IMG/VR virus record: IMGVR_UViG_3300036790_000034
Span: 1 to 64,000 of that record
Reading direction: 5' to 3' (one strand)
Source: a virus
DNA: 64,000 nt
Position 1 is the stretch's first letter. Each line of letters opens with the position of its first letter. Below are positions 15,369 to 60,887 of this stretch, one piece after another. A program made the translations under genes and the position numbers. The notes beneath the pieces were generated by a model. The model saw only the letters and a program-made list of their open reading frames with translations, did no database searches and was not told the DNA's origin.

Positions 15369-15722
15369 ATGTCTACAGTACGAGACTCACAAGGCAACAT
15401 CTTGAATGCTCCCGGCCCCGGCTGCGGACGTTACACCGACGCGAACTCGACAGAGATTGATTGGTTCGCCACTCACCCGCGTCCGGTCGAAGTCACTCTC
15501 GCCGCGACGGTTGAATTCCACGCGACGAAAAGTCCCGCGACACTTCCACCGAACTCCGGCGACACACTGAAGGTTGTCGAAATGGAATCCGATGACAAGC
15601 TGAAAGTTGTCGAAGTGGAATTGCCGAAGACGGCTGAGATTGAGCCGACGGCTCCGGTCGCTGAAGCACTATCCGCTGGCGTCACGACCTCCGTTCTTCC
15701 ACAGACCGCTGTCATAGCGTGA
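15369..15722 (+). CDS. hypothetical protein (MSTVRDSQGN...)
   Basis: AGGAGG RBS; stop overlaps the GT start. Confidence 0.65.
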   Translation: MSTVRDSQGNILNAPGPGCGRYTDANSTEIDWFATHPRPVEVTLAATVEFHATKSPATLPPNSGDTLKVVEMESDDKLKVVEVELPKTAEIEPTAPVAEALSAGVTTSVLPQTAVIA

Positions 15723-16420
15723 AACTTTTAATCGCGGTGATGACGTGCCACAAGCTGGATTACTTCATCGACGCGGATACGAAGGACTGGCTCGACGGCA
15801 AACGCTGCATGAGTCAATCACGACGCGTGATGACACAGCGTGCGACATGGATTAAGCGACTGCCGCAAGGCGTCGATTACAAATTCTTTTATGGAACGCG
15901 GCTTCGTCCTTCTCTCGATACACGCCGCGACACCATCCAACCCACCATTGACCGAGACCCGCTGTCCGATGAAATCTTCCTGACATGCGGAGACAACTAC
16001 ACAGCTAACCCCGAAAAAATGAAAGCGATTTGCCGCTACGCTCTCGCACGCGGATACGACTATTTGTTGCGTCTGGATGATGACACCTTCATCTTTCCTG
16101 AACGCCTTCTTTGCGAAGACTGGCAGCACGACTACGCCGGAGCGAACAAAGGTTCGTTTCATCCCGGTGGATGTCTCTTTCTGTCCCGGCGTGCGATGGA
16201 GTTGGTTGTTGCGTCCCGGCCCACATCTTATGCAGACGACCTTTGGATTGGACAGGTCATGGCGGACAATCGAATCCCGATGCACGGCATCGCTGCGATT
16301 CACAACGAGTTCGGAAACGGATACAATGTCATTCCTGAATCCCTCCCGATACACCGCCTCGCTTCCTTTCATTCGTGTCAGCCTGCGGTCATGGAATATC
16401 TCGATAAACATGCGGACTAA
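15719..16420 (+). CDS. glycosyltransferase, GT31/galactosyltransferase-like
   Basis: LLIAVMTC, YLLRLDDDTFI (DxD), GGCLFLSRRAM, DDLWIG. Confidence 0.85.
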   Translation: MKLLIAVMTCHKLDYFIDADTKDWLDGKRCMSQSRRVMTQRATWIKRLPQGVDYKFFYGTRLRPSLDTRRDTIQPTIDRDPLSDEIFLTCGDNYTANPEKMKAICRYALARGYDYLLRLDDDTFIFPERLLCEDWQHDYAGANKGSFHPGGCLFLSRRAMELVVASRPTSYADDLWIGQVMADNRIPMHGIAAIHNEFGNGYNVIPESLPIHRLASFHSCQPAVMEYLDKHAD

Positions 16421-16453
16421 TTACCCGCGTGGGGCGGTGCTAACTCACCGCCC
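16410..16453 (+). ncRNA. orphan copy of the TAATTAC double-hairpin element
   Basis: ATGCGG-ACTAATTAC-CCGCGT then GGGCGGTG-CTAACT-CACCGCCC; no downstream loop complement. Confidence 0.6.
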
Positions 16454-16491
16454 ATCTTGAAAGCCATGATTGATTACCTTGGGAGGCATTC

Positions 16492-17454
16492 ATGAGTTTG
16501 GACGCGACGAACGATGTCATTGTAGGCACAGCCAAAGGATACGGCTGGAAAGACCTAGAAAATTACGCAGTCAGTCTCGCAGCGTCCGGCTTTCGAGGCC
16601 GCAAGGTGATGTTCATCAACACGCTGACGCAAGCCGCGAAAGACACGCTGACCAAGCTGGGCTTTGAACTGGTCGAGTACACTTCGACGGCGGGTAACAC
16701 CGTTTACGAACGGTTCAGAGTTCTCCGTGACTGGCTGAACAAGGAAATCTTCAACATCCGCTACATCATTCATTGCGACGTTCGTGATGTTGTTATCCAG
16801 ACCGACCCGTCGGCGTGGATGGAGAAACAGACCACGAGATTGTTCGGGGCGAGTGAGTTCATTCTCTACCGCAACGAAATGTGCAACCCTGAGTGGGTCA
16901 AGAAACTTTACGGCGACCAGACGCTTGCATCTCTCGCCAATGAAGAAGTCATCTGTGCAGGCACCATCGCGGGAGAGGCGAAAGCAGTCCTCCAACTTGT
17001 CACTGAGATTTACGGCAGTTGCACAGACCGCTTTGGCGATGACCAAGCCGCGTTGAACGTTCTACTCCGCAACGAGTTCAAGAATGAGATGCGGATTCCG
17101 ACATGGGACGAAGGTTTCATCCTGACCGCAGGCTGGTGGTTGATTGGCCGCGTCAATGGAAATCCCGACCAACTCATCGGACAGAAGTCGCACCTTGGGA
17201 TGAACCCGCCGCAATTGAAAGATGGTGTGGCGTATCCTTACGGAAGCGACAAGCCCTACTGCATCGTCCACCAGTACGAACGCGGTAATGAATGGGCACC
17301 ACTGATTTCCAAGCACTATCACGCGATGGCTCCAGCGGTCGCAGACGACACTGCTCAAACAACGGCTGCTGTCCGGCGACGGAGAGCGGGTCCGCTGAAG
17401 TACGCGAAAGACGGATTGACGCTCGACTGGTTCGACATGCACGACGTGGGGTAA
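16492..17454 (+). CDS. GT-A fold glycosyltransferase-like protein
   Basis: YIIHCDVRDVVIQTDP, ICAGTIAG, DDQAALN, IVHQYER. Confidence 0.75.
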   Translation: MSLDATNDVIVGTAKGYGWKDLENYAVSLAASGFRGRKVMFINTLTQAAKDTLTKLGFELVEYTSTAGNTVYERFRVLRDWLNKEIFNIRYIIHCDVRDVVIQTDPSAWMEKQTTRLFGASEFILYRNEMCNPEWVKKLYGDQTLASLANEEVICAGTIAGEAKAVLQLVTEIYGSCTDRFGDDQAALNVLLRNEFKNEMRIPTWDEGFILTAGWWLIGRVNGNPDQLIGQKSHLGMNPPQLKDGVAYPYGSDKPYCIVHQYERGNEWAPLISKHYHAMAPAVADDTAQTTAAVRRRRAGPLKYAKDGLTLDWFDMHDVG

Positions 17455-17455
17455 C

Positions 17456-18124
17456 ATGCGATACAGCCTCCTGACGCCGACACTTTGTCGGTCAACACTC
17501 AAGCGGTTGTGCGATTCGATTGACGCCCAGACTTCACCGAGTTGGGAACACATAGTCATTGTTGACTGTGACCCGACTCCCGAACAGGGGGTCATTCTTG
17601 AATCAATCAAGCATCCCCAGCGTCGAATCGTGCGATGCTCGAAGCAACACAAAATGGATTACGGCAACACCGCCCGCCGCGAGGGGTTCGACATTGCTCA
17701 AGGGGATTACATACTCCAGATTGATGACGACGATTACTACGCGGACAACGAAGTCTTCACGACGCTCGAACGCGTCACGAAGCCGTGGGCTGCGTTCCCG
17801 GTTCTTGCACGCGGCATTCGATGCCACAACAAGCCGCCAGCCCTTCATCTGACTGGCTCCGCGATGTTCATGTATCGCCGCGACACGGGATTGAAGTTTC
17901 CTGATAACGCGGATTACTCTGCCGACGGCCAACTCGTCGAGGAGTTGAAGAAGCGATTTCCATACGAAACGTTGGACGACTGTCGGGAACTGGTTATCTA
18001 CCCGAAAGCGAATCACGGCAGGACACAGGCTGAAATTGATGCGTGGCGTCCGACCCTGAAGGCAATTAAGTACGCGGCTGACGGTTGCACCATTGATTGG
18101 CACGACCAACGCACACGCGGCTAA
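17456..18124 (+). CDS. glycosyltransferase family 2
   Basis: SLLTPTL..SIDAQT..WEHIVIVD, ARREG..AQGDYILQIDDDD. Confidence 0.9.
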   Translation: MRYSLLTPTLCRSTLKRLCDSIDAQTSPSWEHIVIVDCDPTPEQGVILESIKHPQRRIVRCSKQHKMDYGNTARREGFDIAQGDYILQIDDDDYYADNEVFTTLERVTKPWAAFPVLARGIRCHNKPPALHLTGSAMFMYRRDTGLKFPDNADYSADGQLVEELKKRFPYETLDDCRELVIYPKANHGRTQAEIDAWRPTLKAIKYAADGCTIDWHDQRTRG

Positions 18125-18136
18125 AAGGAAAAACAC

Positions 18137-18481
18137 ATGGCAGCAGTTCTTGAACCCGCTGGCTCCGGCGTAGCGGGCACGCAGACACAGGGCGTGACAA
18201 AGCAGTATCAGGCATCTGGCACGGGAAGTTCGGCCTCCACTCTGGAGACCATCACTCCGTACGACAGCGGCACTATCCTTGGCACCGTTCCTCCCGGCAA
18301 AGCTGGGCTGAAGCTGGTCGATGGCACAGTGCAGCGTGCATCGCAGTTGCTTGCAGACAGCACCCCCGGTGCGGTAGGCAACGCTCTCGTGCCGACGTTC
18401 TCAACATTGAATACGGACCCGACGCCGCCGTCTGGTTCACAGCCCGCCGACGGATTGTCACAGGCACCGAACCGCGAGTAA
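18137..18481 (+). CDS. hypothetical Ser/Thr/Gly-rich protein, possibly virion
   Basis: AAGGA RBS; low-complexity composition. Confidence 0.6.
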   Translation: MAAVLEPAGSGVAGTQTQGVTKQYQASGTGSSASTLETITPYDSGTILGTVPPGKAGLKLVDGTVQRASQLLADSTPGAVGNALVPTFSTLNTDPTPPSGSQPADGLSQAPNRE

Positions 18482-18494
18482 TAGGGAGGGAGCC

Positions 18495-18845
18495 ATGCGT
18501 TCCGATAAGACGTTACGACGCTGGTATCTCCTCATCAACAAGAAATTCTTCTACGGCGAGTTGCCCACGAATGTCATTATTCGATGGGCACTCCCCGGTG
18601 AAGAGAAAGACATCGCGTGTACGGAACGTTTGCTCGAAGGCAAATACTGCTACGAGGTTCTTCTCAATCGCGACAAGAACAAAACCAATTCGCAGAAGTT
18701 GAGTTCGCTCCTTCACGAGATGGTTCACATCGCTACCCACTACAAAGATAATCACGGTCCTCTCTTCAGTGATTGGCATGACAAACTCGTCGAGCGTGGG
18801 GCATTCAAGAAGGGAGCCTTGCTGGTAGGAATCAGCCTGTTCTGA
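18495..18845 (+). CDS. SprT-like zinc metalloprotease
   Basis: LINKKFF...LLHEMVHI...NHGPLF (HExxH plus HG). Confidence 0.8.
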   Translation: MRSDKTLRRWYLLINKKFFYGELPTNVIIRWALPGEEKDIACTERLLEGKYCYEVLLNRDKNKTNSQKLSSLLHEMVHIATHYKDNHGPLFSDWHDKLVERGAFKKGALLVGISLF

Positions 18846-18854
18846 GGAGGGCAG

Positions 18855-19133
18855 ATGCCGAGAAAATCGGAACATATCGTGTTCGCGATGAACACTGCCG
18901 CAGCAATTGCGAGAGATAAGAAATGTCCGCACGCCACACGCCTTCGTGCGTTAGACCGATTCTGCGTGTTGGCGAAACTGTACGACATCAAGATGCAGGA
19001 CAACGACCCGCGAAACGACGGTCGGAAGCCAGAAGAGTTGCCCGTCACGCCAGACTCAGCGGATGCGGAATTGGATAGGTTAGTCGCAGAGCGAGTCAAG
19101 AAGTACAAACCAGAGGGGAACAATGGGCGTTAA
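18855..19133 (+). CDS. hypothetical protein, possible terminase small subunit
   Basis: Small helical protein upstream of terL; GAGGAGG RBS; function is inference only. Confidence 0.45.
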   Translation: MPRKSEHIVFAMNTAAAIARDKKCPHATRLRALDRFCVLAKLYDIKMQDNDPRNDGRKPEELPVTPDSADAELDRLVAERVKKYKPEGNNGR

Positions 19134-19404
19134 CTATCCGACAGTGAAAGAGTCCGACATCGACGGCTTTGCCCGCGTGTGGGACCATCGCGGCCTCAAG
19201 CTGATTATGGACGCGACTTCAAAGCGATTCGCGGTTGATTTCGCGAACGTTGTACTTCGGTCGTATATCGACGACCTTCGGGCCAAGGCTGCTCTAGCTC
19301 TCAAGGCAAAGCAGGCAGCGACGACCCCGGCACCCGCCGAGGCGTTGCCCGCCCCGGTTCCTGCCCCGGAACCTGTCAAGTCCACCATCATCCTCACGGA
19401 CTAG
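19123..19404 (+). CDS. hypothetical protein with Pro/Ala-rich tail
   Basis: GAGGGG RBS; overlaps its neighbours. Confidence 0.6.
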   Translation: MGVNYPTVKESDIDGFARVWDHRGLKLIMDATSKRFAVDFANVVLRSYIDDLRAKAALALKAKQAATTPAPAEALPAPVPAPEPVKSTIILTD

Positions 19405-19820
19405 TGATGGAAAAGTCCTGTAGGTACTGTGGAGATTCTTACACTCCGACTCGGAGTCTGCGAGTTTACTGTTCGGAACAGTGTGGTAAGAACGCCCGCA
19501 ACAAGAAATGGCGTGATGCGAAGGATATGGGGGCATACTTTCGCGGATACCGATATGGTTTTATCCCCGGTGAATTTGAACGACGTATCAAAGACCAGAA
19601 TGGTCTGTGCTTGGCTTGTGGTCAACCTTTCGGGGACGAAACTCCCTGCGTAGACCATGACCATTCCTGCTGTGCCAAGGCCGCTCCAACGTGCGGTAAA
19701 TGTACCAGAGGGTTGCTTCACCAAACATGCAATAGGATTCTTGGTCAAGCGAAGGATGATTCTACTCTCCTAGCATCCTTGGTTTCTTATCTTCGGGAGG
19801 CACCGTGGAAGAAATCATAA
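19404..19820 (+). CDS. endonuclease VII-like homing endonuclease
   Basis: QNGLCLACG...CVDHDH...RGLLHQTCNRILG. Confidence 0.85.
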   Translation: MMEKSCRYCGDSYTPTRSLRVYCSEQCGKNARNKKWRDAKDMGAYFRGYRYGFIPGEFERRIKDQNGLCLACGQPFGDETPCVDHDHSCCAKAAPTCGKCTRGLLHQTCNRILGQAKDDSTLLASLVSYLREAPWKKS

Positions 19821-20299
19821 AAGGATTGTGGCTTGGCAGCGACGAAGATGTCCCCAAGGCGAAGGAGCGAGGGTGGGCACGTTTATGTGCCTGCAAAGAC
19901 GGGATTGATTCGCATCGTTCGATGCTTGAATACGAGACTCGCGGTGCTCCTGACGGAAAAGATTATTACTTCGCCCGCAAAGGCGATGTGCTGGCACTCA
20001 ATTTGATTGACAGCGAAGACCCTGAGATGATTCCTGATAAGGTCATCGACGCGGGCCTGAAGTTCATCAAGGAGATGCAGGACAAACACCGCATCCTTCT
20101 TGTTCACTGCAACGCGGGTCACTCGCGGTCTCCGATTATCACGCTGATGTATCTTCATGCAGTCGGAGAGTTACCGCAGAATTACATCACCGCGTCTAAG
20201 CGGTTCAAGTACCTGTACGATAAGTTCGACCCCGGCGTCGGCATGGAAAGTCACGCAAGGGAAAGATGGAAAGCGTTGCCACAATTTTTCAACAAATAG
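19805..20299 (+). CDS. dual-specificity/tyrosine protein phosphatase
   Basis: EIIKGLWLGS; catalytic CX5R loop VHCNAGHSRS. Confidence 0.9.
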   Translation: MEEIIKGLWLGSDEDVPKAKERGWARLCACKDGIDSHRSMLEYETRGAPDGKDYYFARKGDVLALNLIDSEDPEMIPDKVIDAGLKFIKEMQDKHRILLVHCNAGHSRSPIITLMYLHAVGELPQNYITASKRFKYLYDKFDPGVGMESHARERWKALPQFFNK

Positions 20300-20360
20300 A
20301 CGGCTTAATTACCCGTCTAGGGCGGTTGCTGATACCAGCCGCCCATTCTTGTATCAGGAG
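20297..20360 (+). ncRNA. TAATTAC hairpin plus RBS-pairing pseudoknot element
   Basis: TAGACGG-CTTAATTAC-CCGTCTA; GGGCGGTTG-CTGATAC-CAGCCGCCC; the loop pairs with GTATCAG(GAG). Confidence 0.7.
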
Positions 20361-20365
20361 AAAAC

Positions 20366-20728
20366 ATGAACAAAACAAAGTACGACAAACAGTATTACCT
20401 CGACCACAGAGAAGAGTTTCTTGCCCGGGCTTCAGTGTCTTATGCTTCGCCTGAAGGCAAGCGTCGAAATCTAGCCAATCGCCTTCGACGAGAGTTTGAT
20501 ATGACTCTCGAAGAATACGAAAGGAAAGATACAGAGCAAGCGGGGCTTTGTAAGATTTGTGGACACTCGCAGCATGGTGGTAAGCGGTTAGCCGTTGACC
20601 ATGACCACGATACGAAGGAAAATCGAGATTTACTTTGCGACCTCTGCAATCGTGCATTGGGGTTGTTCAAAGACAACCTTGATACACTTCGTAATGCTGT
20701 CGCGTATCTAGAAAAGTGGAAGAAATAA
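20366..20728 (+). CDS. endonuclease VII-like homing endonuclease
   Basis: QAGLCKICG...LAVDHDH..RDLLCDLCNRALG. Confidence 0.9.
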   Translation: MNKTKYDKQYYLDHREEFLARASVSYASPEGKRRNLANRLRREFDMTLEEYERKDTEQAGLCKICGHSQHGGKRLAVDHDHDTKENRDLLCDLCNRALGLFKDNLDTLRNAVAYLEKWKK

Positions 20729-20729
20729 C

Positions 20730-21407
20730 ATGGGCATTCTCGATAACCCGATTGTCAAAGGTCTTGTAGACAAGGCCAAAAATACAGCAGCCGCAGTTAA
20801 GACGGGCAATCAGGAAACTGAGGGTCTCGGCAATGAGCTCGCAGCCAAGAGCGACATGATTAAGGCTGCACGCGGTGAGACGAATGAACCCGCACCCAAG
20901 GCTCCAGTAAAACGTGAGCCTTCGACGTGGGAGAAAGTTCACCCCATGCCTTACGGCTCCCGCCCCGGCGAGAAACGTATCGACGTGACCGATGCTTTGA
21001 AGCCTCTCGGTTCGTACAAGAAAGGAACACCCTACGTCCCTAAGACTGGAGTCTACAAACTCCACGAGGGAGAGGCGGTCGTCCCAAAGGAAAAGAACAC
21101 CATGAATGCAGCAGACGCGATGGCGGGCATCACAGGCAAAGCCAAGCCGCCCAAAGAAATCAAAGAAATGGTGCATACGAAGACTCACAATAATAAGCAC
21201 ATTGTGACTCATCGACACCATCACCCGGAGCATCACCCTGATGAAACTCATGCTTTCGATAACATGAGTGACGTTCACTCTCATATGGAAGACCACGCGG
21301 GTGTTCCTAATGCGGGAGAGGCTGCTCCTACTGGTGCTGAGGCACCTTCGCCGTTGACCGCAGCCCCCTCTCCGGCCCCCACTCCAACCCCGACGCCGGG
21401 AATGTAA
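20730..21407 (+). CDS. hypothetical His-rich protein
   Basis: GTPYVPKTGVYKLHEGEAVVP motif; HRHHHPEHHP tract; Pro-rich tail. Confidence 0.7.
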   Translation: MGILDNPIVKGLVDKAKNTAAAVKTGNQETEGLGNELAAKSDMIKAARGETNEPAPKAPVKREPSTWEKVHPMPYGSRPGEKRIDVTDALKPLGSYKKGTPYVPKTGVYKLHEGEAVVPKEKNTMNAADAMAGITGKAKPPKEIKEMVHTKTHNNKHIVTHRHHHPEHHPDETHAFDNMSDVHSHMEDHAGVPNAGEAAPTGAEAPSPLTAAPSPAPTPTPTPGM

Positions 21408-21418
21408 AGGATAATTCA

Positions 21419-21631
21419 ATGGAACATTCACCCGAAGAAAAATCACATTTTTCCCGCTCTATGCATAAGCTGCATGGTGGGGCACTTCATCGGCATTTCG
21501 ATATACCGGAAGACCAGCCGATTCCGATGGAGAAGAAACAAGAAGCCGCAAACTCTGACAATCCGCACGTTGCCGCGATGGGACGTATGGCGGTAGCGAT
21601 GCACGGTTGGAAACATCCGGGTAAGAAATAA
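21419..21631 (+). CDS. small His-rich hypothetical protein
   Basis: HKLHGGALHRHFDIPEDQPIP; RBS present. Confidence 0.6.
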   Translation: MEHSPEEKSHFSRSMHKLHGGALHRHFDIPEDQPIPMEKKQEAANSDNPHVAAMGRMAVAMHGWKHPGKK

Positions 21632-21703
21632 CGAAATGTGAGGAGACCGTTCGTGTGGCATCGGCCATCTTGGAGTCTGCTTTATGATATTTGAGGGGGA
21701 GTA

Positions 21704-23698
21704 ATGACGCCCGAGACACTGGCTGAACTGGTACACAAGCACAAATCGGACAAGAACTACCAACACCGCGACATGTCGTGGGAGGAGTTCGACGCGAAGG
21801 CTGAAACGTCGTTCAAGCGAATGACGGCTGAACGCATCGCGAAAGTGCTCAAGGTGTGCTTCAAGTTCCAGTTGACTGATGAGAACCTCATCAAGCGGGC
21901 ACGCTTCATGGCCCAGACCAATTTGTTCTTTCTCTGCAAACTCCTTGAACTTTATAAGGACATGAGCGACCAAGAATATACTTGGATTGACGGCACGGTC
22001 CACAACACTCACGAAGAAATTTGCAACGAGTTCTTCGTTCGCAAAGACCCGACGTACAAGAACTTCAAAGAGTTCTCGTCCATCAAGAATTACATCGACA
22101 AGAAGGAACGTCTCCTGCTCGTCCCCCGTGGTGGATTCAAATCCACAATGAACATGGCGGACTGTGTGCAGTGGACAATCGCATTCCCCGAGATTACGAT
22201 TCTCGTGCTCTCCGGCGTGCTTTCCCTTGCGAATAAGTTCGTTGGCGAAATCAAAGGTCACTTCACGCTCGAAGAGGGCGGGGCTGACTACGCGGGTCTG
22301 TTCGTTGAAAAGAAGAATTATCGTCCACGCACTATGGACGACGGCACATCGTTCTTGTTCCAAGCATTGTTCGCGGAGCATTGCATTCCGCTGGATGACG
22401 GCAAGGCGAGTGAGTTTCAAACTCCCGCTGTCTCCAATCGACAGAAAGAGCCGACGGTATTTTCGGCGTCTATCGAACAGTCCTTGACAGGTTTCCACGT
22501 CTGCATCCTCAAACTGGATGACGTGGTCACCAACGAGAACTCGCTGACGGTCGAACGCTTGAAGGCAGTCAATAAGCAAGTCTCCATCAACCAAGCTATG
22601 TTGCACCCTTACGGGTTCTACGACAAGATTGGAACGTGGTACGACTCTGAAGACACCTACGGCCAAGACATCAAAGCCATCAAGATGTATGAGGAAGAGG
22701 GCGAAATAAGCCCGATGAAACTTTATCTGCGTCCGGCGTGGTGGCCCAACGAGGCTGCACGCAAAGCAGGTAAAATCGAAGAAGAGATGACGAAGGCCGA
22801 TTACGACTTGTGGTTCAACGTCGAGGGCCAACTCACCTACGAATTCCTCTATCACAAAAAGAAGACCGACCCGTACTTCGCAATCAAGTACTTGAATGAC
22901 CCGACACAGATGCACGTCATCAAGTTCCCTCGTGAGATGCTCATCCGTAAAACGGTGAACGCCGTCGAGGTTCCCGGCACCGGGATGATTGTGACTTGCG
23001 TGGACACCGCGTACTCGACTAAGTCGTGGGCGGATTACACGGTCATCATCACAGCACTTATTAGTCAGGGACGATTCTACATCATAGACATGTCGCGAGG
23101 CCGTTACGACGAGTACACTCTCCCGGCCATGATTGCGGCAACGGCTCTCAAGTGGAAACCCAAACGGGTTTGCATCGAAGAGACGGGAGCTATGAAGTAT
23201 ATTCAGCGTGAAGTCTATCGCGAGATGGATAAGCTGAAGTGTCGTGCCCCGATTGAGTTGGTTCCGCTCGGCCAAGGCTCGAAGAAGAACTCGAAGCAGA
23301 TGAAGGCCGGACCAGTCCTCCGATTCCTCGGAGATGACCGACTGAAGTTTGTCAACACCTGCCCCAGCCTCGAAGACTTGTACGATGAGTTGTCGAAGTT
23401 CGGCACGGCAGCAAGCACGCACGACGACATCGTTGATGCTCTGTCAATTCTCGTGAATACCTTTGCGAGTTACGCAGACATCGAAGCCAAGATACAGGCC
23501 GCTTCGCTAGAATACTCGCCGGACCCCAAAGGGAAGTCGTTCTATGACCAAGTCTACGGACTCGGGAAGTACGACAAATACAACGCACTCAACGCTGCGT
23601 TGGAATTCCCAGAACAGGCACCGGACACACTCGCGAAGCAAGCTGCGGAAGATGCCGTGTATGCGGCTCAAGACCCGCTCAACGATTTGTTCGGCTAG
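21704..23698 (+). CDS. terL: terminase large subunit
   Basis: LLVPRGGFKST Walker A; ILKLDDVV Walker B; IGTWY; RNase H-like VDTAYS...DYT...HDDIVDA. Confidence 0.9.
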   Translation: MTPETLAELVHKHKSDKNYQHRDMSWEEFDAKAETSFKRMTAERIAKVLKVCFKFQLTDENLIKRARFMAQTNLFFLCKLLELYKDMSDQEYTWIDGTVHNTHEEICNEFFVRKDPTYKNFKEFSSIKNYIDKKERLLLVPRGGFKSTMNMADCVQWTIAFPEITILVLSGVLSLANKFVGEIKGHFTLEEGGADYAGLFVEKKNYRPRTMDDGTSFLFQALFAEHCIPLDDGKASEFQTPAVSNRQKEPTVFSASIEQSLTGFHVCILKLDDVVTNENSLTVERLKAVNKQVSINQAMLHPYGFYDKIGTWYDSEDTYGQDIKAIKMYEEEGEISPMKLYLRPAWWPNEAARKAGKIEEEMTKADYDLWFNVEGQLTYEFLYHKKKTDPYFAIKYLNDPTQMHVIKFPREMLIRKTVNAVEVPGTGMIVTCVDTAYSTKSWADYTVIITALISQGRFYIIDMSRGRYDEYTLPAMIAATALKWKPKRVCIEETGAMKYIQREVYREMDKLKCRAPIELVPLGQGSKKNSKQMKAGPVLRFLGDDRLKFVNTCPSLEDLYDELSKFGTAASTHDDIVDALSILVNTFASYADIEAKIQAASLEYSPDPKGKSFYDQVYGLGKYDKYNALNAALEFPEQAPDTLAKQAAEDAVYAAQDPLNDLFG

Positions 23699-23711
23699 AG
23701 AGGATTGCTAG

Positions 23712-25844: not shown

Positions 25845-25904
25845 CAATGATGTGAGGCAGGGATTGTCATTGGTCCCTGCCTCGTAGGGTTACTCGGGGG
25901 AGAT

Positions 25905-26276
25905 ATGCTGAAAATCACGGACGACATCAAAGGTCTCGACATGACCTTCGAGTTGACTGAGCGACAGGTTGCGATTCTCGCAGCCGCTTGTAAGCAAGAA
26001 TGGTTCGACATCATTCAGAAGATGATGGAGAACGAAGTCAAGATGCTCAACGTCAGACTCATCAACACTGAGACCGCGAACCCGAACGAGATTCTGGCAA
26101 ACCACGCGATGGCAAAGGGTGCCGGAATGTTCTATGTCGGATTCATCCAACGGCTGCAACACTTGCTGCAAGTGGAAGCGTACAACGCTCAAGCCATTGG
26201 GACGCCGGAGAACCCGGAGCAGCCGCCATACCAGCCGGAATTCGCCGGACAGGCGTTCGCAGATGAAGTTGGTTAA
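25905..26276 (+). CDS. small head-associated protein between portal and scaffold
   Basis: Position; EWFDIIQKM helix; GGGGGAG RBS. Confidence 0.6.
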   Translation: MLKITDDIKGLDMTFELTERQVAILAAACKQEWFDIIQKMMENEVKMLNVRLINTETANPNEILANHAMAKGAGMFYVGFIQRLQHLLQVEAYNAQAIGTPENPEQPPYQPEFAGQAFADEVG

Positions 26277-26297
26277 GAAAATTCGGAGGAGAATTTT

Positions 26298-27410
26298 ATG
26301 GCTTTGACATTGCTCGACATCGAGAATCTGTCTTCGGCGGAATACGCCAAGAAGTTGAAAACGGACCCCGCATTTGCTGCGGAGGTCAATGCGTTGCTGG
26401 CGAATCCGCCACGCAACCCCGTAGCACCTGTTGTGCCCGTTGAGGAAGTTGCTCCGGCACCAGTACCCGCTCCCGCAGCCCCGGTCGAACTACCGGAACT
26501 GCGATACGAGTGGCAACCGACCGATGAGAACGACCGTCCTATCGGTGGTCGTCAGGTCATCAAATATCGCACAGAGGAAGAGAAGTTCGCCAAGGTTATC
26601 GAAGCGAACAACCTCCTAATCCGTCAGCTTCGCAAAGTGAATCGCGACAAGGCGGTAGGTTCGGCGGAAGAGATTCCGTCCGACGCAGAAAGATTCCAGA
26701 ACGTCACGGAGTTCAAACCCCGCGTCTTGACATCGGATGAACGATTCAAGCTGGCACAGGGGTTGACGAACCCAGAGACGTTCGATGAATCGCGTGACGC
26801 GTTGATTGAGTCAGCGTTTGGGGTCAAACCCGCAGTGCTGGCCTCAACCTTGAATGACACGCAACGATTCATCATTCAGCAACGTGCTGTCGAGAATTAC
26901 ATCGACTTCGTCAATACGACGGGCGTCTATGACAGCATGAACAATCGACAAGTCCTGACAGGTTGGCTGGGCAAGCGAAATCTCGCTCCGACCGTCGCAA
27001 ACTTTAACATTGCCCTATCTCAGTGTCGTCAATCTGGATTGATTGAAGATGCTCCTGTTGTGCAGCAGGTAACTCCGGCCCCGGCACCCGCTCCAGTAGC
27101 GGTGCCCGTCGTGCCCGTGGTAACGGAACCGAATCCGCAGGTTCCAGCAGCAGCCGCCCCCGGATTGGGGAATGAGCCGCAGCCGCAAGCAAAGCGTCAT
27201 AGTCACGTACCATCCGGTCTGAATGCCACAGTTGCTTCAGCAGCGGGACCAATCGTCCCTGTGGATGGAAATTCGGTGACTCTTGAGATGATTGATAAGA
27301 TGTCAGCCGCACAGTTCAAGGAATGGGCGAAAGTCCCCGCGAACCGTGCGTTGAACGAACGTCTTGAGCAGGAAGCTGCCCAGCGTCGTCGTGCTCGACA
27401 GAATCAATAA
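26298..27410 (+). CDS. capsid scaffolding protein
   Basis: Immediately upstream of the MCP; Pro/Ala linkers; terminal IDKMSAAQF-type helix. Confidence 0.7.
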   Translation: MALTLLDIENLSSAEYAKKLKTDPAFAAEVNALLANPPRNPVAPVVPVEEVAPAPVPAPAAPVELPELRYEWQPTDENDRPIGGRQVIKYRTEEEKFAKVIEANNLLIRQLRKVNRDKAVGSAEEIPSDAERFQNVTEFKPRVLTSDERFKLAQGLTNPETFDESRDALIESAFGVKPAVLASTLNDTQRFIIQQRAVENYIDFVNTTGVYDSMNNRQVLTGWLGKRNLAPTVANFNIALSQCRQSGLIEDAPVVQQVTPAPAPAPVAVPVVPVVTEPNPQVPAAAAPGLGNEPQPQAKRHSHVPSGLNATVASAAGPIVPVDGNSVTLEMIDKMSAAQFKEWAKVPANRALNERLEQEAAQRRRARQNQ

Positions 27411-27434
27411 TCAAACAACTAAGGTAGAACCACT

Positions 27435-28466
27435 ATGAGTTTTTCTCCGGCTGGCAATCAGCTTTCTAACCTGCCTCAGTCCACGGTGAAGCATTACGAC
27501 AAGAAGTTCCGTGAGAACCTGAAGGCCAACACCCCGTTCGTCCGTTGTGCAGAGCGTCTCGACCTGCCCATGAAGTCCGGTAACCAGTACGAAATGTTCA
27601 TGTACGTGCCTCTGGCAGCGAACACGAACCAGACGACTGAAGGAACCGTGGGTTCGTCCCTGAGCGTCAGCGTGCTGACCACGACTGCGACCATCGGTGA
27701 GTACGCCGACTACGCGAACTTCTCGTCTCTGTCGCTGGCAACCTCCATTGACCAGACTGTCGAGAACGTCGCGAAGGAAATGTCGTATCGCCTTGGCGAG
27801 TCCCTCTCGGCTCTCGTCCGTGCAACCGCCGACGGTGCGTCGAGCATTGATGCCAGCGTCCTCGTGCAGCTTGCTGCGTCGAGCACGTCCAGCTTCACCG
27901 CTCTGTCTCTGAGCCAGATTCGTAACAGCGTTCAATCGCTGGCGGGTCGCTCCGTCCGTCCGTTCGACGAGGCAAGCAAGGCATTTATTGGCGTCATCCA
28001 CCCGTTCGCCCTTGGCGACGTGCTGGCTGACAACAGCAACGATTCTCCAATCGACATCCTGAAGCATACCCCTGTGGGTCAGGCCAAGATGGATGAACTC
28101 GTGAGTGTTGACCTTGAGGAAGTAATCGAACTGCCGTCCACTGGCGTTCACTTCTTCCAGACCAACCTCGTGACCAAGACCTCGAACTACAAGGGCGTCA
28201 CGGGCCTCACTGCTCTCCGTACCTACATTTTCGGTAAGGACGGCATCTTCGCTATCAACCTCGGTGCCCAGAACGACACCAACTTCGGTGATGGCGACTG
28301 GCGTAACATCAAGTGCAACATCGTTCAGAACGCTGAACCGACCGTTGCCGACCCCGAAGGTTTGATTCCGGGGTGGACGAGCTACCGTGTTCACTTCACG
28401 ACCTCGCTCGGTCCTGACACCACGATTCGTATGCGGCAGATTGACGCCGCTTCCGCAATCAGCTAA
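27435..28466 (+). CDS. major capsid protein (HK97 fold, N4-gp56-like)
   Basis: 343 aa; TEGTVG, IGEYADY, FIGVIHP, GVHFFQTN, ADPEG motifs; strong codon bias; downstream hairpin. Confidence 0.85.
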   Translation: MSFSPAGNQLSNLPQSTVKHYDKKFRENLKANTPFVRCAERLDLPMKSGNQYEMFMYVPLAANTNQTTEGTVGSSLSVSVLTTTATIGEYADYANFSSLSLATSIDQTVENVAKEMSYRLGESLSALVRATADGASSIDASVLVQLAASSTSSFTALSLSQIRNSVQSLAGRSVRPFDEASKAFIGVIHPFALGDVLADNSNDSPIDILKHTPVGQAKMDELVSVDLEEVIELPSTGVHFFQTNLVTKTSNYKGVTGLTALRTYIFGKDGIFAINLGAQNDTNFGDGDWRNIKCNIVQNAEPTVADPEGLIPGWTSYRVHFTTSLGPDTTIRMRQIDAASAIS

Positions 28467-28478
28467 TCGACGAAGCGA

Positions 28479-28500
28479 AGGGGTGGGCCATCCCACCCCT
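28479..28500 (+). terminator. GC-rich hairpin after the MCP (terminator or stability element)
   Basis: AGGGGTGGG-CCAT-CCCACCCCT; weak U tract. Confidence 0.45.
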
Positions 28501-28557
28501 AAGTCGAAATAGTGTCGCACGCTGGAATGTACAGCGTGCCTAGATAGGAAGATTCGC

Positions 28558-29148
28558 ATGGCAAATCCCAATCCACAGCACACTCCGACCGACGGTCTGG
28601 GCGTAGCTGCATACGTGACCCTCAGCGGGTCCAGCGGGAGTTCGGTTATCACCAACTCCAGCGGCGGGGCGGACAAGTCGCAGGGTTCCAACGGTCAGGG
28701 TATCGGCCCCGGCACCGCAGCGTCAGGTTCTTTCCCGGTCGCACAGTACGCTCTGACATTGAGCGTGTCCGCAGCGGGCGGATATGCGAGTTCCCTCGCA
28801 GTGACCGCAGCACTGACGGATGTGCAGAACAACGCATACACTCCAGTCGGGTCCATCGAGGCGAAGTCGTACAACAACCCATCGGCGGGTTCACCGTCGT
28901 GGTATCGCCCAAGCAACTTCGCGGGTTACTCTGCGGACGTTGCGTCCGTCACGGACACTTCAGCATCGGCTGGTAACGAAGTCTTTACCATCACCGCTCT
29001 GAACCCCGGACAGGCTATCGTTGAGTGCCTCTTTCCCACTTTCGATAACACTTTGGGGAATCAAGCATCCGCGACAACTCCCAACACAGAATCGTTCAAT
29101 CCGACAATGGCGATATATGTGCAGGTAGTTGTGACCGTAATTCCTTAG
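28558..29148 (+). CDS. putative capsid decoration/Ig-like virion protein
   Basis: Ser/Thr/Ala-rich beta protein after the MCP; FTITALNPGQAIV. Confidence 0.6.
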   Translation: MANPNPQHTPTDGLGVAAYVTLSGSSGSSVITNSSGGADKSQGSNGQGIGPGTAASGSFPVAQYALTLSVSAAGGYASSLAVTAALTDVQNNAYTPVGSIEAKSYNNPSAGSPSWYRPSNFAGYSADVASVTDTSASAGNEVFTITALNPGQAIVECLFPTFDNTLGNQASATTPNTESFNPTMAIYVQVVVTVIP

Positions 29149-29212
29149 GCTTAGCGGCCTATGGCTAGATGGCGGGATGCCTAGAACATCCCGCTGTCGC
29201 TCTTTCTAGGAG
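29146..29212 (+). ncRNA. variant hairpin plus RBS-pairing pseudoknot element
   Basis: TAGGC-TTAGCG-GCCTA; GATGGCGGGATG-CCTAGAA-CATCCCGCTGTC; the loop pairs with TTCTAGG(AG). Confidence 0.65.
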
Positions 29213-29217
29213 ATGAG

Positions 29218-29634
29218 ATGGCGTACAAAGATTTAGAAAATCGGCGTGCTGCGGGTCGTAAAGCCTCGCAACGATTCCGCGATATCCACGGTGCGGAATC
29301 AAAGAAGTACCAACGTGAGTGGGCAAGGAATCTGAGTCCCGAGAAAAAGAAACTCCGGGCGAAGAAGGGTAATCGTCGTCGATATGGTTTGACGATTGAA
29401 AAGTATGATGCGAAGTTGGCATCCCAAAATAATTTGTGTGCGTTGTGCCACAAGCCCTTCAATTCAAAAATCGAACGAGAGCGTCCCGTTTTAGACCATA
29501 ATCATCGGACGAAAGTTTTACGAGATTTTATCCATAGCCAGTGTAATATCGGCATCGGAAATCTATTGGATGATGCTGCGATTTGTCGTCTCGCGGCGGA
29601 ATATTTAGAACGACACAAACAGGAGGAAGCATGA
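29218..29634 (+). CDS. endonuclease VII-like homing endonuclease
   Basis: YGLTIEKY..QNNLCALC...VLDHNH..RDFIHSQCNIGIG. Confidence 0.85.
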   Translation: MAYKDLENRRAAGRKASQRFRDIHGAESKKYQREWARNLSPEKKKLRAKKGNRRRYGLTIEKYDAKLASQNNLCALCHKPFNSKIERERPVLDHNHRTKVLRDFIHSQCNIGIGNLLDDAAICRLAAEYLERHKQEEA

Positions 29635-30086
29635 GTTGGGATACGGATTGGTCAACAGGAGTTTCGGAAACTATAACCGAGATACAAAGCATTGCTGCGA
29701 ATCAAGCTACTGATGAAGCGGACATCGCTGCTTTGCAAGCAGCCGCACTATATGTAGTGCAAACGACGGGAACTTCACTGACGGTAAGTTCTTCTGGACA
29801 AGGGAAGTTTCTGAAAGTCTATGCTGCGGGGGTTGTGGCGGGTAACGCTTCTACGACTGTCAGTGCGTCGATAGGCGGCGGTTTGGTGGTAGCGACCCCG
29901 TTCAATACGAATTCTTCAGGGTTGTTTATCCTTGAATTCGATATGTATTTCGACGGAAGCCATCTCTTCGTTCTGAAACCGGGGAGCAATCCTCAGGTGG
30001 CATCTTCATCGTCAACATCCTTCGGCGTATCACTCAGTAGCGGCGGGGGAGCCATCACGATTAGCAATTTCGTCGTGGAAGGCTAA
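29631..30086 (+). CDS. putative virion fibre/structural protein (MSWDTDWSTG...)
   Basis: AGGAGG RBS inside the HEG end; short coiled coil then beta-rich domain. Confidence 0.6.
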   Translation: MSWDTDWSTGVSETITEIQSIAANQATDEADIAALQAAALYVVQTTGTSLTVSSSGQGKFLKVYAAGVVAGNASTTVSASIGGGLVVATPFNTNSSGLFILEFDMYFDGSHLFVLKPGSNPQVASSSSTSFGVSLSSGGGAITISNFVVEG

Positions 30087-30093
30087 AGATTCA

Positions 30094-30136
30094 GAGGCCG
30101 CTTGACAGTTAACGCTGTACGAGCGGCCTTCTTTTT
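30094..30136 (+). terminator. intrinsic terminator
   Basis: GAGGCCGCTT...GAGCGGCCTT followed by CTTTTT. Confidence 0.6.
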
Positions 30137-30153
30137 CATCTCTAGGAGGAGAT

Positions 30154-30438
30154 ATGTCGGAGGAGCTAGATAAGGACCAAATCATCGCGTCCTTGATGGA
30201 ATCAGTAGAGAATCTGCGAGGCGAGTTAGCACAGCTTCGCAACAACAACCGCATTCTGCGTAGAGTGCATAGTGCCCTTCGTTCTGCCAACCAGTCCTTG
30301 CAGAACCGAGTGGCGATTGCCCAGCAGAACGACGAGTTGTTCAAAGAATTATGCACGAGCGACTTTGGTGCCAAGGTCACGAGTCCCGAGGATGGTGGAT
30401 TACCGGAGCCGGGAACACAGGTGGAAGCGTCGGTCTAG
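30154..30438 (+). CDS. coiled-coil hypothetical protein
   Basis: AGGAGGAG RBS; heptad repeats. Confidence 0.65.
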   Translation: MSEELDKDQIIASLMESVENLRGELAQLRNNNRILRRVHSALRSANQSLQNRVAIAQQNDELFKELCTSDFGAKVTSPEDGGLPEPGTQVEASV

Positions 30439-30583
30439 AACGGCGTGGATACGTCAATGCTCATCGCGGCTTGCTACCGTGACAGAGATTGATATACAGC
30501 ACTGAAGTGAAGGCTTCTCCCTGCGTGGGTAAGCCGTCCGTGAAGCCGCACCGGAGAAGCCTTTACATTTCTTGGAGGAGAAA

Positions 30584-31096
30584 ATGAAAAGTTTGAATTT
30601 GTTTTTGCGTGACCTGTTTTACAATCTCTACCTGCGATACGCAGGGCAGTTCCGAACCCAGCAGCAGGTTGCTGAAGCGAAGATGCACGGCAACGTGCTT
30701 GAAGGATTTGAGAGAGCAATTATCAAATCTCAGATGAAGTGTAACCATCACAAAGGTGGGACCATCTTCCGTGTTGTGGGTGAGTCAACTAGCCCCGCGA
30801 AGATTGCGGAGTGCTTACAAAATGGCACGGGCAACCAGTACAGCGTCATGAAGCACCAGATGATGAATGGTGATTGGCGTGTCCGCTGCACACGATGCGG
30901 TAAGACTTGGACCGCACCGATTCGTCAGGAGTATCGGAATGACCGCGAGTTCTGGGCGGCGATTGAGGATTACGAACGAGCCAAGAAGTTCGAGACGAAC
31001 AACCACACGAGCACGTCACTTCAGTTCCAGTGGCGGTATCGTGATGGCAGCGACGGCTCTGAGGTTCCTCGCAAAGCAATGGCAGCGAGGGTCTAA
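30584..31096 (+). CDS. KHQMxNGD zinc-finger family protein
   Basis: CNHHKGG...KHQMMNGDWRVRCTRCGKTW...FETNNHTSTS; paralog of 31819-32511. Confidence 0.75.
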   Translation: MKSLNLFLRDLFYNLYLRYAGQFRTQQQVAEAKMHGNVLEGFERAIIKSQMKCNHHKGGTIFRVVGESTSPAKIAECLQNGTGNQYSVMKHQMMNGDWRVRCTRCGKTWTAPIRQEYRNDREFWAAIEDYERAKKFETNNHTSTSLQFQWRYRDGSDGSEVPRKAMAARV

Positions 31097-31809
31097 TGCC
31101 AACGAACGAGGAATATCTCCAACGCTGGGAAGACGCTGCCCCGACGCCAGTCGCAACTGACTTGACGCCGGAAGAGATTGCCAAGATGCAGGGGACGCGT
31201 AACAGCGACAAACCCTCTTGGCAGACGTACGACGAAGAGATGATGGGTGATGTTGAAGACGCCGTTCTCCTCGAAGCGATGGCAGAGTACGCCAGTCGCG
31301 GGCCCAGCGGGGCTGAAGCAACCACCCAGACAAAAGAAGAACTGGCTCGGTTGAAAGAAGCATCCGCAGAACAGGTCAAAGAATATCAGTGGCTTTCGCC
31401 GGAAGAGTACAAGGACGAGAAAGAACGCATCGGTCACATCATGCACTCTGTCGTTTTCTTGAACAAACTCCAGAAGGCCGGGGTGAATTGCTGGTATCGA
31501 AGTCACCCGCAAGCCGGAAAAATCACGCTCATCGTCCAGCGTGCTGCATTGCCGCCTGAAGTTGGATGCTGGTGCCAAGAAGGATTCGCACCTGAACTTT
31601 CAATCATGCGGTTTGATGACCACGGCATTCCCCTCGCGGAGAAGTATCGCGGGTGGAGAACGCCACTCTTACAGTTGATTCTCAAGGGAGTCATCAGTGA
31701 GAAAAAGGCCGACGAGATTTTCGGGAAGCCTAAGACGACTCCCGCGTTCCATCGGTACAACTCGACCCTACGGAGATTCCGTGATGCGGGTTCGAGGTTA
31801 GAAAACTAG
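31096..31809 (+). CDS. hypothetical protein (237 aa)
   Basis: Coupled start (TAATG); ...KYRGWRTPLLQLI. Confidence 0.7.
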   Translation: MPTNEEYLQRWEDAAPTPVATDLTPEEIAKMQGTRNSDKPSWQTYDEEMMGDVEDAVLLEAMAEYASRGPSGAEATTQTKEELARLKEASAEQVKEYQWLSPEEYKDEKERIGHIMHSVVFLNKLQKAGVNCWYRSHPQAGKITLIVQRAALPPEVGCWCQEGFAPELSIMRFDDHGIPLAEKYRGWRTPLLQLILKGVISEKKADEIFGKPKTTPAFHRYNSTLRRFRDAGSRLEN

Positions 31810-31818
31810 GAGGAAGTT

Positions 31819-32511
31819 ATGAGCAAAGAAACTACGAAGCCGACGGGATTCCCCGAGGTTGACCCCACAGCGTCCGTTGAAGACCAGATTAAGCAGGCTG
31901 AACTCGCTGCGAAGCTGATGGAACTGGAAATCAAGCGTCAGGAACTCGAAGCCAAAGGGCTTGAGATTCAGGAACGCAAGTACCACATCCAAGACCTCAA
32001 AGCGAAGCTGGCCGACCGCGAAATCAGCGAGAAGCAGGCGAAGGAAGACCGTGAGCAGCAAGGTAAGACCATCGCCCAGCAGGAAGCAACCGACAAGTAT
32101 CGGTTCAGCGTTTGCACTCACCGCAAGGGTGGACTTGTTTCGCCCCGCGACCAGCGAGTGCTTTCGACGGGAGGCAACGCTAACCAGCGTGCAGTCCTGA
32201 AGCACCAGATGATTAACGGTGACATCTGGGTTCGCTGTCTCCGTTGCGGTAAGACTTGGGCACCCCCGGTCATGAACAACTTCTTCTTCGACGCAAAGGG
32301 CCGTAATGTGGCTCCGGTCGATGGGGAGTTCAACAAAGAGAAGTTCGAGAAGTCCGTCGCAGAGTACAAGGAAGCGACGATGTTCGAGACGAACAACTCG
32401 ATGTCCACTTCGGTCCAGTGTCGCTTCAGCACGGTCGATGCAGAGACGGGCAAAGTGATTGACGCGTCAGACCTCTACCGCGAGAATCTAGGCTCGACGA
32501 CTCTGCGATAA
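31819..32511 (+). CDS. coiled-coil plus KHQMxNGD zinc-finger family protein
   Basis: CTHRKGG...KHQMINGDIWVRCLRCGKTW...FETNNSMSTS. Confidence 0.75.
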   Translation: MSKETTKPTGFPEVDPTASVEDQIKQAELAAKLMELEIKRQELEAKGLEIQERKYHIQDLKAKLADREISEKQAKEDREQQGKTIAQQEATDKYRFSVCTHRKGGLVSPRDQRVLSTGGNANQRAVLKHQMINGDIWVRCLRCGKTWAPPVMNNFFFDAKGRNVAPVDGEFNKEKFEKSVAEYKEATMFETNNSMSTSVQCRFSTVDAETGKVIDASDLYRENLGSTTLR

Positions 32512-32526
32512 GTTGCAATTGCAAAT

Positions 32527-32592
32527 CTCATGGTCTAATTACCCATGAGCGGGGCGTGCTAGTAACACGCCCCAAACTCTTTTACTAGGAGA
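32527..32592 (+). ncRNA. TAATTAC hairpin plus RBS-pairing pseudoknot element
   Basis: CTCATGG-TCTAATTAC-CCATGAG; GGGGCGTG-CTAGTAA-CACGCCCC; the loop pairs with TTACTAG(GAG). Confidence 0.7.
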
Positions 32593-32596
32593 GAAC

Positions 32597-32983
32597 ATGA
32601 AACGTAAGACGTATTGTGTGCGAGGGCATCTTCGCACACCTGAAAATCTCATTCGCAACAATTGTAAGTTGTGTATGAAACAGTGGAACGTAGAACACCC
32701 GGAAGAACGCAAGAAAATCGCTCGTGAATATTCCCGACGATACAGAATGCGGAAACTTTACAACCTGACTGAAGAACAATATCAAGAATTGTTCCAGAAA
32801 CAAAGAGGGTTGTGTGTTCTCCCATCCTGCGGTGAACCCGCTACGGATATCGACCACTGTCACGTCCGCAGCAAGACGCGTGGGTTGATGTGCAATCGGC
32901 ACAACCTCGCCCTTGGATTATTCGGTAACAGCCCGATTCTGCTTCGTGAAGCCGCTGTATATCTGGAGACTTTCAATGGGTAA
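32597..32983 (+). CDS. endonuclease VII-like homing endonuclease with N-terminal CxxGH domain
   Basis: CVRGH..PENL; QRGLC; DIDHCH..RGLMCNRHN. Confidence 0.85.
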   Translation: MKRKTYCVRGHLRTPENLIRNNCKLCMKQWNVEHPEERKKIAREYSRRYRMRKLYNLTEEQYQELFQKQRGLCVLPSCGEPATDIDHCHVRSKTRGLMCNRHNLALGLFGNSPILLREAAVYLETFNG

Positions 32984-60190: not shown

Positions 60191-60264
60191 GCGGGTGTGG
60201 GCCATTGGTAGGCTAGTTGGCTTCCACCCAACTTATGGGAGTTCAATCCTCTCCACCCGCTCCA
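60191..60264 (+). tRNA. tRNA-Gly(TCC)
   Basis: GCGGGTG/CACCCGC-T-CCA; GTTGG-CT TCC AC-CCAAC; TTCAATC T-loop. Confidence 0.9.
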
Positions 60265-60327
60265 TCGACGTAAAGCAAGCATACCCCGGTGATGCCGATT
60301 AAAAGGATTCGCCGGGGATTGTGATGT

Positions 60328-60414: not shown

Positions 60415-60419
60415 ATTTG

Positions 60420-60849: not shown

Positions 60850-60887
60850 TTCTTTTTGTCCGTTACTAATGGACACGCAACGAACAC

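Follow-up and report, generated by a model that had tools for sequence, protein, structure and literature searches.

A portable leader RNA with two matching hairpin loops, a candidate translational brake on homing endonuclease genes of uncultured soil phages

Selfish genes for homing endonucleases are common in phages and, to our knowledge, the control that keeps their expression harmless is understood only in a few cases of the T4 family. The question is raised again by a stretch of 64,000 nucleotides (nt; hereafter the window) that makes up bases 1–64000 of IMGVR_UViG_3300036790_000034, a 97,491-bp IMG/VR phage contig from an uncultured soil phage. A preliminary description of this DNA, made from its letters alone, had noticed hairpins recurring ahead of homing endonuclease genes (HEGs) of the EndoVII family, and had proposed that they sequester the ribosome-binding site (RBS). 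What are these hairpins, and what could they do for the genes behind them? We report here that they belong to a leader with two hairpins, H2 and H3, whose loops can pair with each other; these pairings covary, the complete leader is linked exclusively to nuclease genes, and it is present or absent as a module. From sequence comparison, we consider it likely that free-standing HEGs of an uncultured soil-phage clade share this portable 5′ leader RNA, and that it holds down translation of the nuclease in cis.

In the window, three EndoVII genes carry the leader, always on the + strand and always in the same order: a first hairpin (H1), the GC-rich H2, and a region that contains H3 and the Shine-Dalgarno sequence (SD). 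In leader 2, H1 occupies 20297–20319 (stem TAGACGG/CCGTCTA, loop CTTAATTAC) and is followed by H2 at 20320–20344, with a 9-bp GC-rich stem and the loop CTGATAC (20329–20335). The H3/SD region of this leader (20345–20365) consists of a pyrimidine strand (20346–20350), the loop and partner GTATCAG (20351–20357) and the SD strand GAGAA (20358–20362), and the gene behind it (20366–20728) encodes an EndoVII-family homing endonuclease of 120 amino acids (aa) (Pfam PF02945, E = 1.4e-20). Leader 4 (32527–32596) shows the same layout, with H1 at 32527–32549 (loop TCTAATTAC), H2 at 32551–32573 (loop CTAGTAA, 32559–32565) and an H3 made of the pyrimidine strand 32577–32581, the loop TTACTAG (32582–32588) and the SD strand GAGAG (32589–32593); it precedes a 128-aa EndoVII-family homing endonuclease (32597–32983, PF02945, E = 3.8e-15). 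Leader 3 (29144–29217) is a variant. Its first hairpin, H1′ (29144–29165), has a TTAGCG-type loop, H2 (29168–29198) has the loop CCTAGAA (29180–29186), and a linker (29199–29203) leads to the partner TTCTAGG (29204–29210), with a weak H3 stem of 3 bp (29201–29203 with 29211–29213); the gene that follows (29218–29634) encodes a 138-aa member of the same family (PF02945, E = 7e-14). A solo leader at 16395–16453 (+) brings the total of the genome to four copies. It comprises an A/T-rich 5′ flank (16395–16408), H1 (16409–16431) and H2 (16432–16453, loop CTAACT), scores 36.7 bits with our first covariance model (R1, see below), has neither loop partner, H3 nor HEG, and is followed by a 320-aa non-nuclease gene (16492–17454).

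The core of the element is the relation between the H2 loop and the bases that run into the SD. In each of the three HEG leaders of the window, all 7 nt of the H2 loop are reverse-complementary to the 7 nt entering GGAG, 6–8 nt ahead of the ATG: CTGATAC matches GTATCAG (20329/20351), CTAGTAA matches TTACTAG (32559/32582) and CCTAGAA matches TTCTAGG (29180/29204). In all three leaders the complementarity ends exactly at the loop boundaries. The H2 stems that present these loops are GC-rich and 8–9 bp long, and the one at 29168 can be extended to 12 bp. The pyrimidine-rich linker between H2 and the partner pairs in turn with the purines of the SD and spacer, and this forms the third hairpin, H3, with the partner as its loop. 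In the family layout the H3 stem has 4–7 bp, and about one unpaired nucleotide separates it from H2. The SD extends from the last bases of the H3 loop into the upper part of the H3 3′ strand (GAGA(A)), so that its first 2–3 bases lie in the loop-loop pairing and the remainder in the H3 stem. Tails other than GAGAA come with linkers changed to match (TGTTCA/TGAACA, CCTTTT/AAAGGG, TTCCCT/AGGGAA, GTCTCT/AGAGAC and TTCTTC/GAAGAA), which argues that the H3 linker is more than an anti-SD-like composition. We also considered a closing stem around the leader, which would turn it into a three-way junction. This was rejected, as the best duplex of the 25 nt upstream of H1 with the SD tail had a mean energy of −3.2 kcal/mol, versus −3.9 kcal/mol with shuffled flanks. 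Since no stem encloses the leader, it is built as three tandem hairpins and not as a junction.

The sequence features singled out in the preliminary description are all there: different but pairing stems with the loop NYTAATTAC in the copies at 20297 and 32527 (and also in that at 16410), H2 loops CTGATAC and CTAGTAA exactly complementary, over their whole length, to the bases before the EndoVII SD, a variant at 29146 that keeps the CCTAGAA/TTCTAGG pair with a TTAGCG first loop, and a copy at 16410 that has both hairpins and neither partner nor HEG. Its layout of two hairpins and an RBS partner was right about the pairing into the SD, but it overlooked H3, with which the element has two matching loops instead of a hairpin and a tail.

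Is this arrangement peculiar to one genome? Related IMG/VR loci were gathered by terminase and capsid queries (29 and 80, respectively), and twelve larger records were examined whole. Two covariance models (R1, built from two window copies, and R2, from ten copies) and a sequence-blind scan (stem of at least 7 bp, entire loop complementary to bases 3–14 nt downstream) recovered one and the same class among these relatives: a loop starting C-Y on a GC-rich stem, an exact downstream complement, an SD and a start codon. Over 1.17 Mb of the phage group, the blind scan gave 23 distinct strong matches, versus about one in Markov-1 random sequence. After removal of duplicates 28 distinct leader-gene units remained, which between them have 19 different pairs of loop and partner, each fully complementary. 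Across this family H2 has a very stable GC-rich stem of 8–9 bp and a 6–8-nt loop beginning with C-Y, the partner lies 5–12 nt downstream of H2 and is followed by (G)GAGA, and the distance to the start codon is 6–9 nt.

A third covariance model, R3, describes H2 and H3 and leaves the loop-loop pairs out; it aligned 31 matches, 23 of them distinct. In the alignment of these 23 rows we observed double-sided changes at all nine pairs of H2, at six of the seven loop-loop pairs and at all six pairs of H3. Paired cells amounted to 94%, versus around 50% when the partners were slid by 1–3 columns, and none of 500 shuffles matched the observed score. Taken alone, the loop-loop pairing had 92.5% of its cells paired, and its covariation was not favoured by the alignment method, because these pairs are absent from R3. 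For H1 and H2, an earlier alignment had given double changes at 12 of 15 pairs. The claim of a recurrent, covarying RNA is thus borne out, both by the recovery with covariance models and by counts that exceed all 500 shuffles and the slid controls. An IMG/VR-wide DNA-pattern scan for one H1 variant added more contigs, with the new pairs CCAAGAT/ATCTTGG, CCACGAA/TTCGTGG and CCATATA/TATATGG.

The spread of the leader is patchy. Some relatives have one to four copies and others none, and the covariance-model search found no copy in the more distant clade members G003–G007, G011 and G019–G021. The sole relative of the contig in the cultured-phage collection INPHARED is a phage of Acidobacteria from Finnish soil, Tunturiibacter phage Tunturi_3; it is distant (73% nucleotide identity over terminase and portal), and the host of this phage group is probably an acidobacterium. 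R2 had no match in Tunturi_3, and we found no cultured phage with the leader. Rfam, with its C4-like antisense and ctRNA motifs, gave no match in any leader, whether over the window at gathering thresholds or over 16000–33000 at E ≤ 5, which agrees with the earlier remark that this is not a recognised named motif, and we found no description of such a leader in the literature that we searched.

Regarding the genes behind the leader, all 28 encode nucleases (EndoVII, GIY-YIG or HNH-type). Pfam assigned 19 of them to Endonuclease_7 and three to GIY-YIG, one of the latter with NUMOD3. Five further genes were checked individually (one of three 206–209-aa proteins containing a helix-turn-helix, two without a Pfam match and two with Endonuclease_7 matches), and all matched endonuclease VII, HNH or homing-endonuclease PHROGs. 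The copies added by the DNA-pattern scan also precede GIY-YIG, EndoVII and HNH genes. The association with HEGs suspected from the window therefore recurs elsewhere, with 28 out of 28 nucleases and 19 loop/partner pairs, but the restriction to EndoVII does not, as several HEG families share the leader. Copies that consist of H1 only, H2 only or H1 and H2 stand before non-nuclease genes. With partial copies before non-nuclease genes and full units before nucleases, the match between loop and RBS thus goes with mobile nuclease genes, which belong to several unrelated families.

H1 and the bases on its 5′ side show a different kind of conservation. Across the family H1 has a 7–8-bp stem and a 9-nt loop, usually NN-TAATTA-C/A. 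The three window copies at 16409, 20297 and 32527 have 7-bp stems with G-C closing pairs and mostly different bases between copies, and a 9-nt loop N-Y-TAATTA-C; the orthologue of leader 4 in the related genome G010 has a different H1 stem. TAATTAC occurs three times in the whole 97,491-bp genome, always on the + strand and always inside an H1 loop. TAATTA and TTATAA, the cores found most often in the loop, are palindromes related by a symmetric double change and are placed 2+6+1 in the 9-nt loop, which could serve for self-kissing or as a site for a dimeric protein. In some leaders the H1 loop is TTAGCG or unrelated in sequence, or H1 is lacking; the TTAGCG class of leader 3 recurs in the loci L086 and L090. 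An A/T-rich stretch, AATWTYTCRAYAAAY, is conserved immediately 5′ of H1 (16395–16408, 20283–20296, L009:891–905 and L007:8553–8567). The upstream genes it falls in differ, and so do its reading frames; it frequently provides their stop codon and is the left edge of the inserted module. The stop may also lie in H1 itself: in leader 2 the TAG at 20297–20299 ends a phosphatase-like gene, and in the copy at 16410 the TAA of the H1 loop (ACTAATTAC) ends the gene at 15719–16420. On two other IMG/VR contigs (L185:406–445 and L207:13883–13922) we found an H1-type hairpin, GGTTGG-ACTAATTAC-CCAACC, with the same A/T-rich flank (CAATTTTTGAAAC) and without H2 or H3; a different small hairpin and non-nuclease genes follow. 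A role of the H1 motif as a general phage promoter is unlikely, given its three genome occurrences, all in leaders, and the lack of a sigma-70-like site in the leaders; reading TAATTA and the H2 loop as −35 and −10 elements gives a poor fit to the consensus.

Comparison with close relatives shows how the leader is distributed at individual sites. The most useful of them is G010 (the same record as locus L002), whose terminase is 92% identical to that of the window. Relative to G010, the leader and HEG at 20297–20728 are an insertion, and the corresponding site in G010 is a plain stop/start junction without a hairpin. At the 29146 site, G010 lacks the leader, the HEG (29218–29634) and the open reading frame (ORF) at 29631–30086, and has no hairpin there. 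This 151-aa ORF overlaps the stop of the HEG (ATGA) and, because both are absent from G010, it seems to have come in together with the nuclease gene. Just downstream of the same insertion, at 30090–30130, the window has a hairpin (AGGCCGCTTG...CAAGCGGCCT) that is conserved with G010 and is probably a native terminator; it gives a weak, sub-threshold Rfam match to ctRNA_pGA1 (22 bits, gathering score 45). The reverse situation is found behind the portal gene, where G010 has H1, H2, H3 and a GIY-YIG gene directly after the stop codon and the window has neither leader nor HEG. At this place (25846–25890) the window shows a native 10-bp GC hairpin (GAGGCAGGGA...TCCCTGCCTC), unrelated to the leader and replaced in L002. 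Leader and HEG are therefore polymorphic for presence and absence at three sites. As for the solo leader at 16410, the homologous gene junction in G001, G002 and G020 lacks it; the comparison rests on these genomes, since the site in close relatives is too diverged at the nucleotide level. The most plausible interpretation of this copy is a relic whose nuclease gene has been lost.

The leader and the nuclease do not travel as a fixed pair. The three HEGs of the window are only 28–35% identical to each other and each is closer to paralogues without a leader, which led us to reject the idea that one cassette was duplicated as a unit. The leaders of L002 and L086 are identical at 92 of 93 positions, exceeding the conservation of the adjoining end of the portal gene, and their GIY-YIG ORFs cannot be aligned from the ATG on. 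A near-identical leader on unalignable ORFs points to a shared module where nuclease ORFs get exchanged, and by these comparisons the leader is a portable module, separable from the nuclease. The mobile cassette of HEG and riboregulator proposed in the preliminary description thus holds as far as joint presence and absence at three sites are concerned, but not as a fixed unit, given the low identity of the window HEGs and the leader shared by unalignable GIY-YIG genes.

What would such a leader do? By analogy with the HEG hairpins of T-even phages, it likely reduces translation initiation. The loop-loop pairing would mask the 5′ half of the SD and the H3 stem its 3′ half; these pairings would lower binding of the 30S subunit, and nuclease output would stay low on late structural transcripts, which are abundant and contain the HEGs. 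Judging from A-form geometry, a full H2, a full H3 and a 7-bp loop-loop helix should not fit together in one molecule with a junction of about 1 nt, and a coaxial H2/loop-loop/H3 stack would place the two stem bases some 20 bp apart. Because these helices could not coexist, we propose that the leader most likely alternates between an H-type pseudoknot, in which the H2 loop pairs with its partner, and the H3 hairpin, both of which would occlude the SD. In the pseudoknot, loop position 1 would act as the short crossing loop, positions 2–7 would be paired and the 5–12-nt linker would cross H2. The U/C-rich tail and H2 may in addition form a weak terminator or a 3′ stabiliser for the upstream gene.

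Several observations speak against a translational brake of this kind. A leader is not needed to carry such genes, since it precedes three (starts 20366, 29218 and 32597) of the 14 EndoVII genes in the genome. The masking helices are short (−4.5 to −9 kcal/mol for the loop-loop duplex, 3–7 bp for H3), and the two covarying pairings seem to exclude each other in cis. The H1, H2 and H3 alignments were fitted to models, which favours those stems. We found no route to de-repression and, unlike in T4, no promoter-like site in any leader with a sigma-70-like scan, although sigma-70 may not be the late promoter type of this phage.

One could argue that the hairpins mainly serve the upstream host gene, with H2 as an intrinsic terminator or 3′-end stabiliser that makes the insertion harmless and with control of the nuclease secondary or absent. 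Indeed, the three window H2 hairpins (that at 20320 among them) are the three strongest terminator-like sites in 15–34.9 kb, upstream ORFs end 4–72 nt before H2, often in H1 and sometimes with the TAA of its loop, and the L002 leader takes the place of the native GC hairpin after the portal gene. However, the tails of H2 are of the A(A)UUCUU type, where the U run is interrupted, usually begins after 1–3 A residues and doubles as the H3 strand. The structural genes downstream of the HEG still need to be transcribed, and a terminator leaves unexplained why the whole loop covaries with the bases before the SD and why the tail pairs with the SD. We hold this explanation to be unlikely. A DNA-level role is very improbable in our opinion. 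The inverted repeats would then form a cruciform or a single-strand hairpin, as a recombination or insertion signal for nuclease cassettes, in keeping with leaders that are insertions relative to empty sites and that, as a recombination module, stand near-identical before different nuclease ORFs. But every copy is on the coding strand immediately 5′ of a gene, the stems tolerate G-U pairs, the leader is common to nucleases of unrelated families, and the SD itself is the pairing partner at a fixed distance from the start codon, which is sensible in RNA only.

Two other explanations accept the RNA pairings and give them another meaning. The matching loops may act between molecules, with H2 kissing the H3 of another transcript copy and the self-complementary H1 loop adding a contact, so that dimers or multimers would silence the mRNA or sequester it. 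Covariation is seen in H2, in H3 and in the loop-loop pairing, which by the geometry above would not fit one monomer, while a side-by-side antiparallel dimer would accommodate all three; the palindromic hexamers TAATTA and TTATAA of H1, set 2+6+1 in the 9-nt loop, keep their self-complementarity through a symmetric double change. If true, this would mean dose-dependent silencing or group handling of nuclease mRNAs, a bacterial-virus counterpart of the retroviral dimerisation initiation site (DIS) or of bicoid mRNA dimerisation. On the other hand, an alternation of two cis folds is a simpler account of the same data, mRNA dimerisation of this type is not established in bacteria, kissing through an A-U-only hexamer is expected to be weak, and in some leaders H1 is missing or its loop (TTAGCG and others) is not palindromic. 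We find such dimers distinctly unlikely and favour alternation in cis over loops that meet between molecules. Alternatively, loop pairing might activate: the H2 loop would capture the loop of a repressing H3, opening it and exposing the core GGAG, and would set a low-to-moderate expression. The loop-loop pairing spans only the first 2–3 SD bases, H3 spans the GAGA core, and the two appear mutually exclusive in cis. Nevertheless, the SD and the standby region are still partly covered in the pseudoknot, we see no condition-dependent trigger, and a constitutively stable H2 would leave H3 pointless, all of which makes activation quite improbable.

The surroundings of the leaders are those of a complete phage genome. 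The contig has direct terminal repeats and was judged complete, and its structural module spans 13.4–57 kb on the + strand, with the terminase at 21704–23698, the portal at 23712–25844 and the major head protein at 27435–28466. This 97.5-kb genome (G000 in our set) has 14 Endonuclease_7 (PF02945) genes and three HNH matches over cut-off, and tandem Endonuclease_7/HNH nuclease genes occur at 34144 and 35027 and at 69636 and 69934. In L002 (G010, reverse strand, ~11568–12199, opposite 27703/27704 of the window), the major head protein gene is split after ...TTATIGE by an insert of ~630 nt that has stop codons at its flanks and an ORF showing a LAGLIDADG-type motif (YLAGFMDGEGSF); it resembles an intron with its own homing endonuclease, and the gene of the window is uninterrupted. 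Rfam also detects in the window a permuted transfer-messenger RNA and five tRNA genes (7060–7239 (−), 60191–60960 (+) and 62849–62922 (−)).

RNA structures that sequester the RBS are known to repress I-TevI, I-TevII, I-TevIII, segB and Aeh1 mobE (PMC3014915, PMC2988022). The T-even hairpins hold a late promoter within the structure, and late transcripts lack the inhibitory strand. The leaders described here resemble them in that the SD of a HEG is enclosed in an RNA helix, with both SD pairings covarying in our case, and in that the HEGs lie within polycistronic transcripts of host-phage genes, presumably with the same aim of low nuclease synthesis. They differ in having no sequence relation, in a short SD hairpin (H3) whose loop matches the loop of a preceding stable hairpin (H2) base for base, in the extra hairpin H1, in showing no embedded late promoter in a sigma-70-like scan, and in one leader that is common to several nuclease families and moves as a module. 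Aeromonas phage 25 has, in seg43(25), a hairpin of very high stability that stands immediately upstream of the RBS without sequestering it (PMC2988022). Our leaders share with it a stable GC-rich hairpin just 5′ of the RBS of a free-standing HEG, with the RBS outside the stem, but their H2 loop is complementary to the RBS region, a pairing that has not been described for seg43(25).

Matching loops are also familiar from kissing-loop and H-type pseudoknot RNAs, such as the ColE1 RNA I/RNA II loops, the trans-activation response element (TAR) of HIV-1 with TAR*, the HIV-1 DIS, the X-Y kissing of the enterovirus 3′ untranslated region and the pseudoknot of the T4 gene 32 leader. Like these, the leaders have 6–7-nt loops fully complementary to another loop or tail and kept so by compensatory changes and, like the HIV-1 DIS, the 9-nt loop of H1 holds a 6-nt palindrome set 2+6+1. 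Unlike them, they are mRNA leaders of mobile nuclease genes, and their matching loops sit on adjacent hairpins about 1 nt apart. According to these comparisons, masking of the RBS of a HEG is already known, but this fold was found neither in Rfam nor in the literature that we searched, which makes it a candidate RNA family for Rfam.

With 19 loop pairs, three covarying helices and both filled and empty sites, the leaders are a natural data set for the tuning of initiation by loop-to-RBS pairing. If they do act as a translational brake, they would also offer synthetic biology a compact design, with a matching loop pair that is apparently freely reprogrammable. For the phages themselves, a leader common to EndoVII, GIY-YIG and HNH-type nucleases in a group so distant would suggest that HEGs have a general and transferable need for RNA structures that brake translation.

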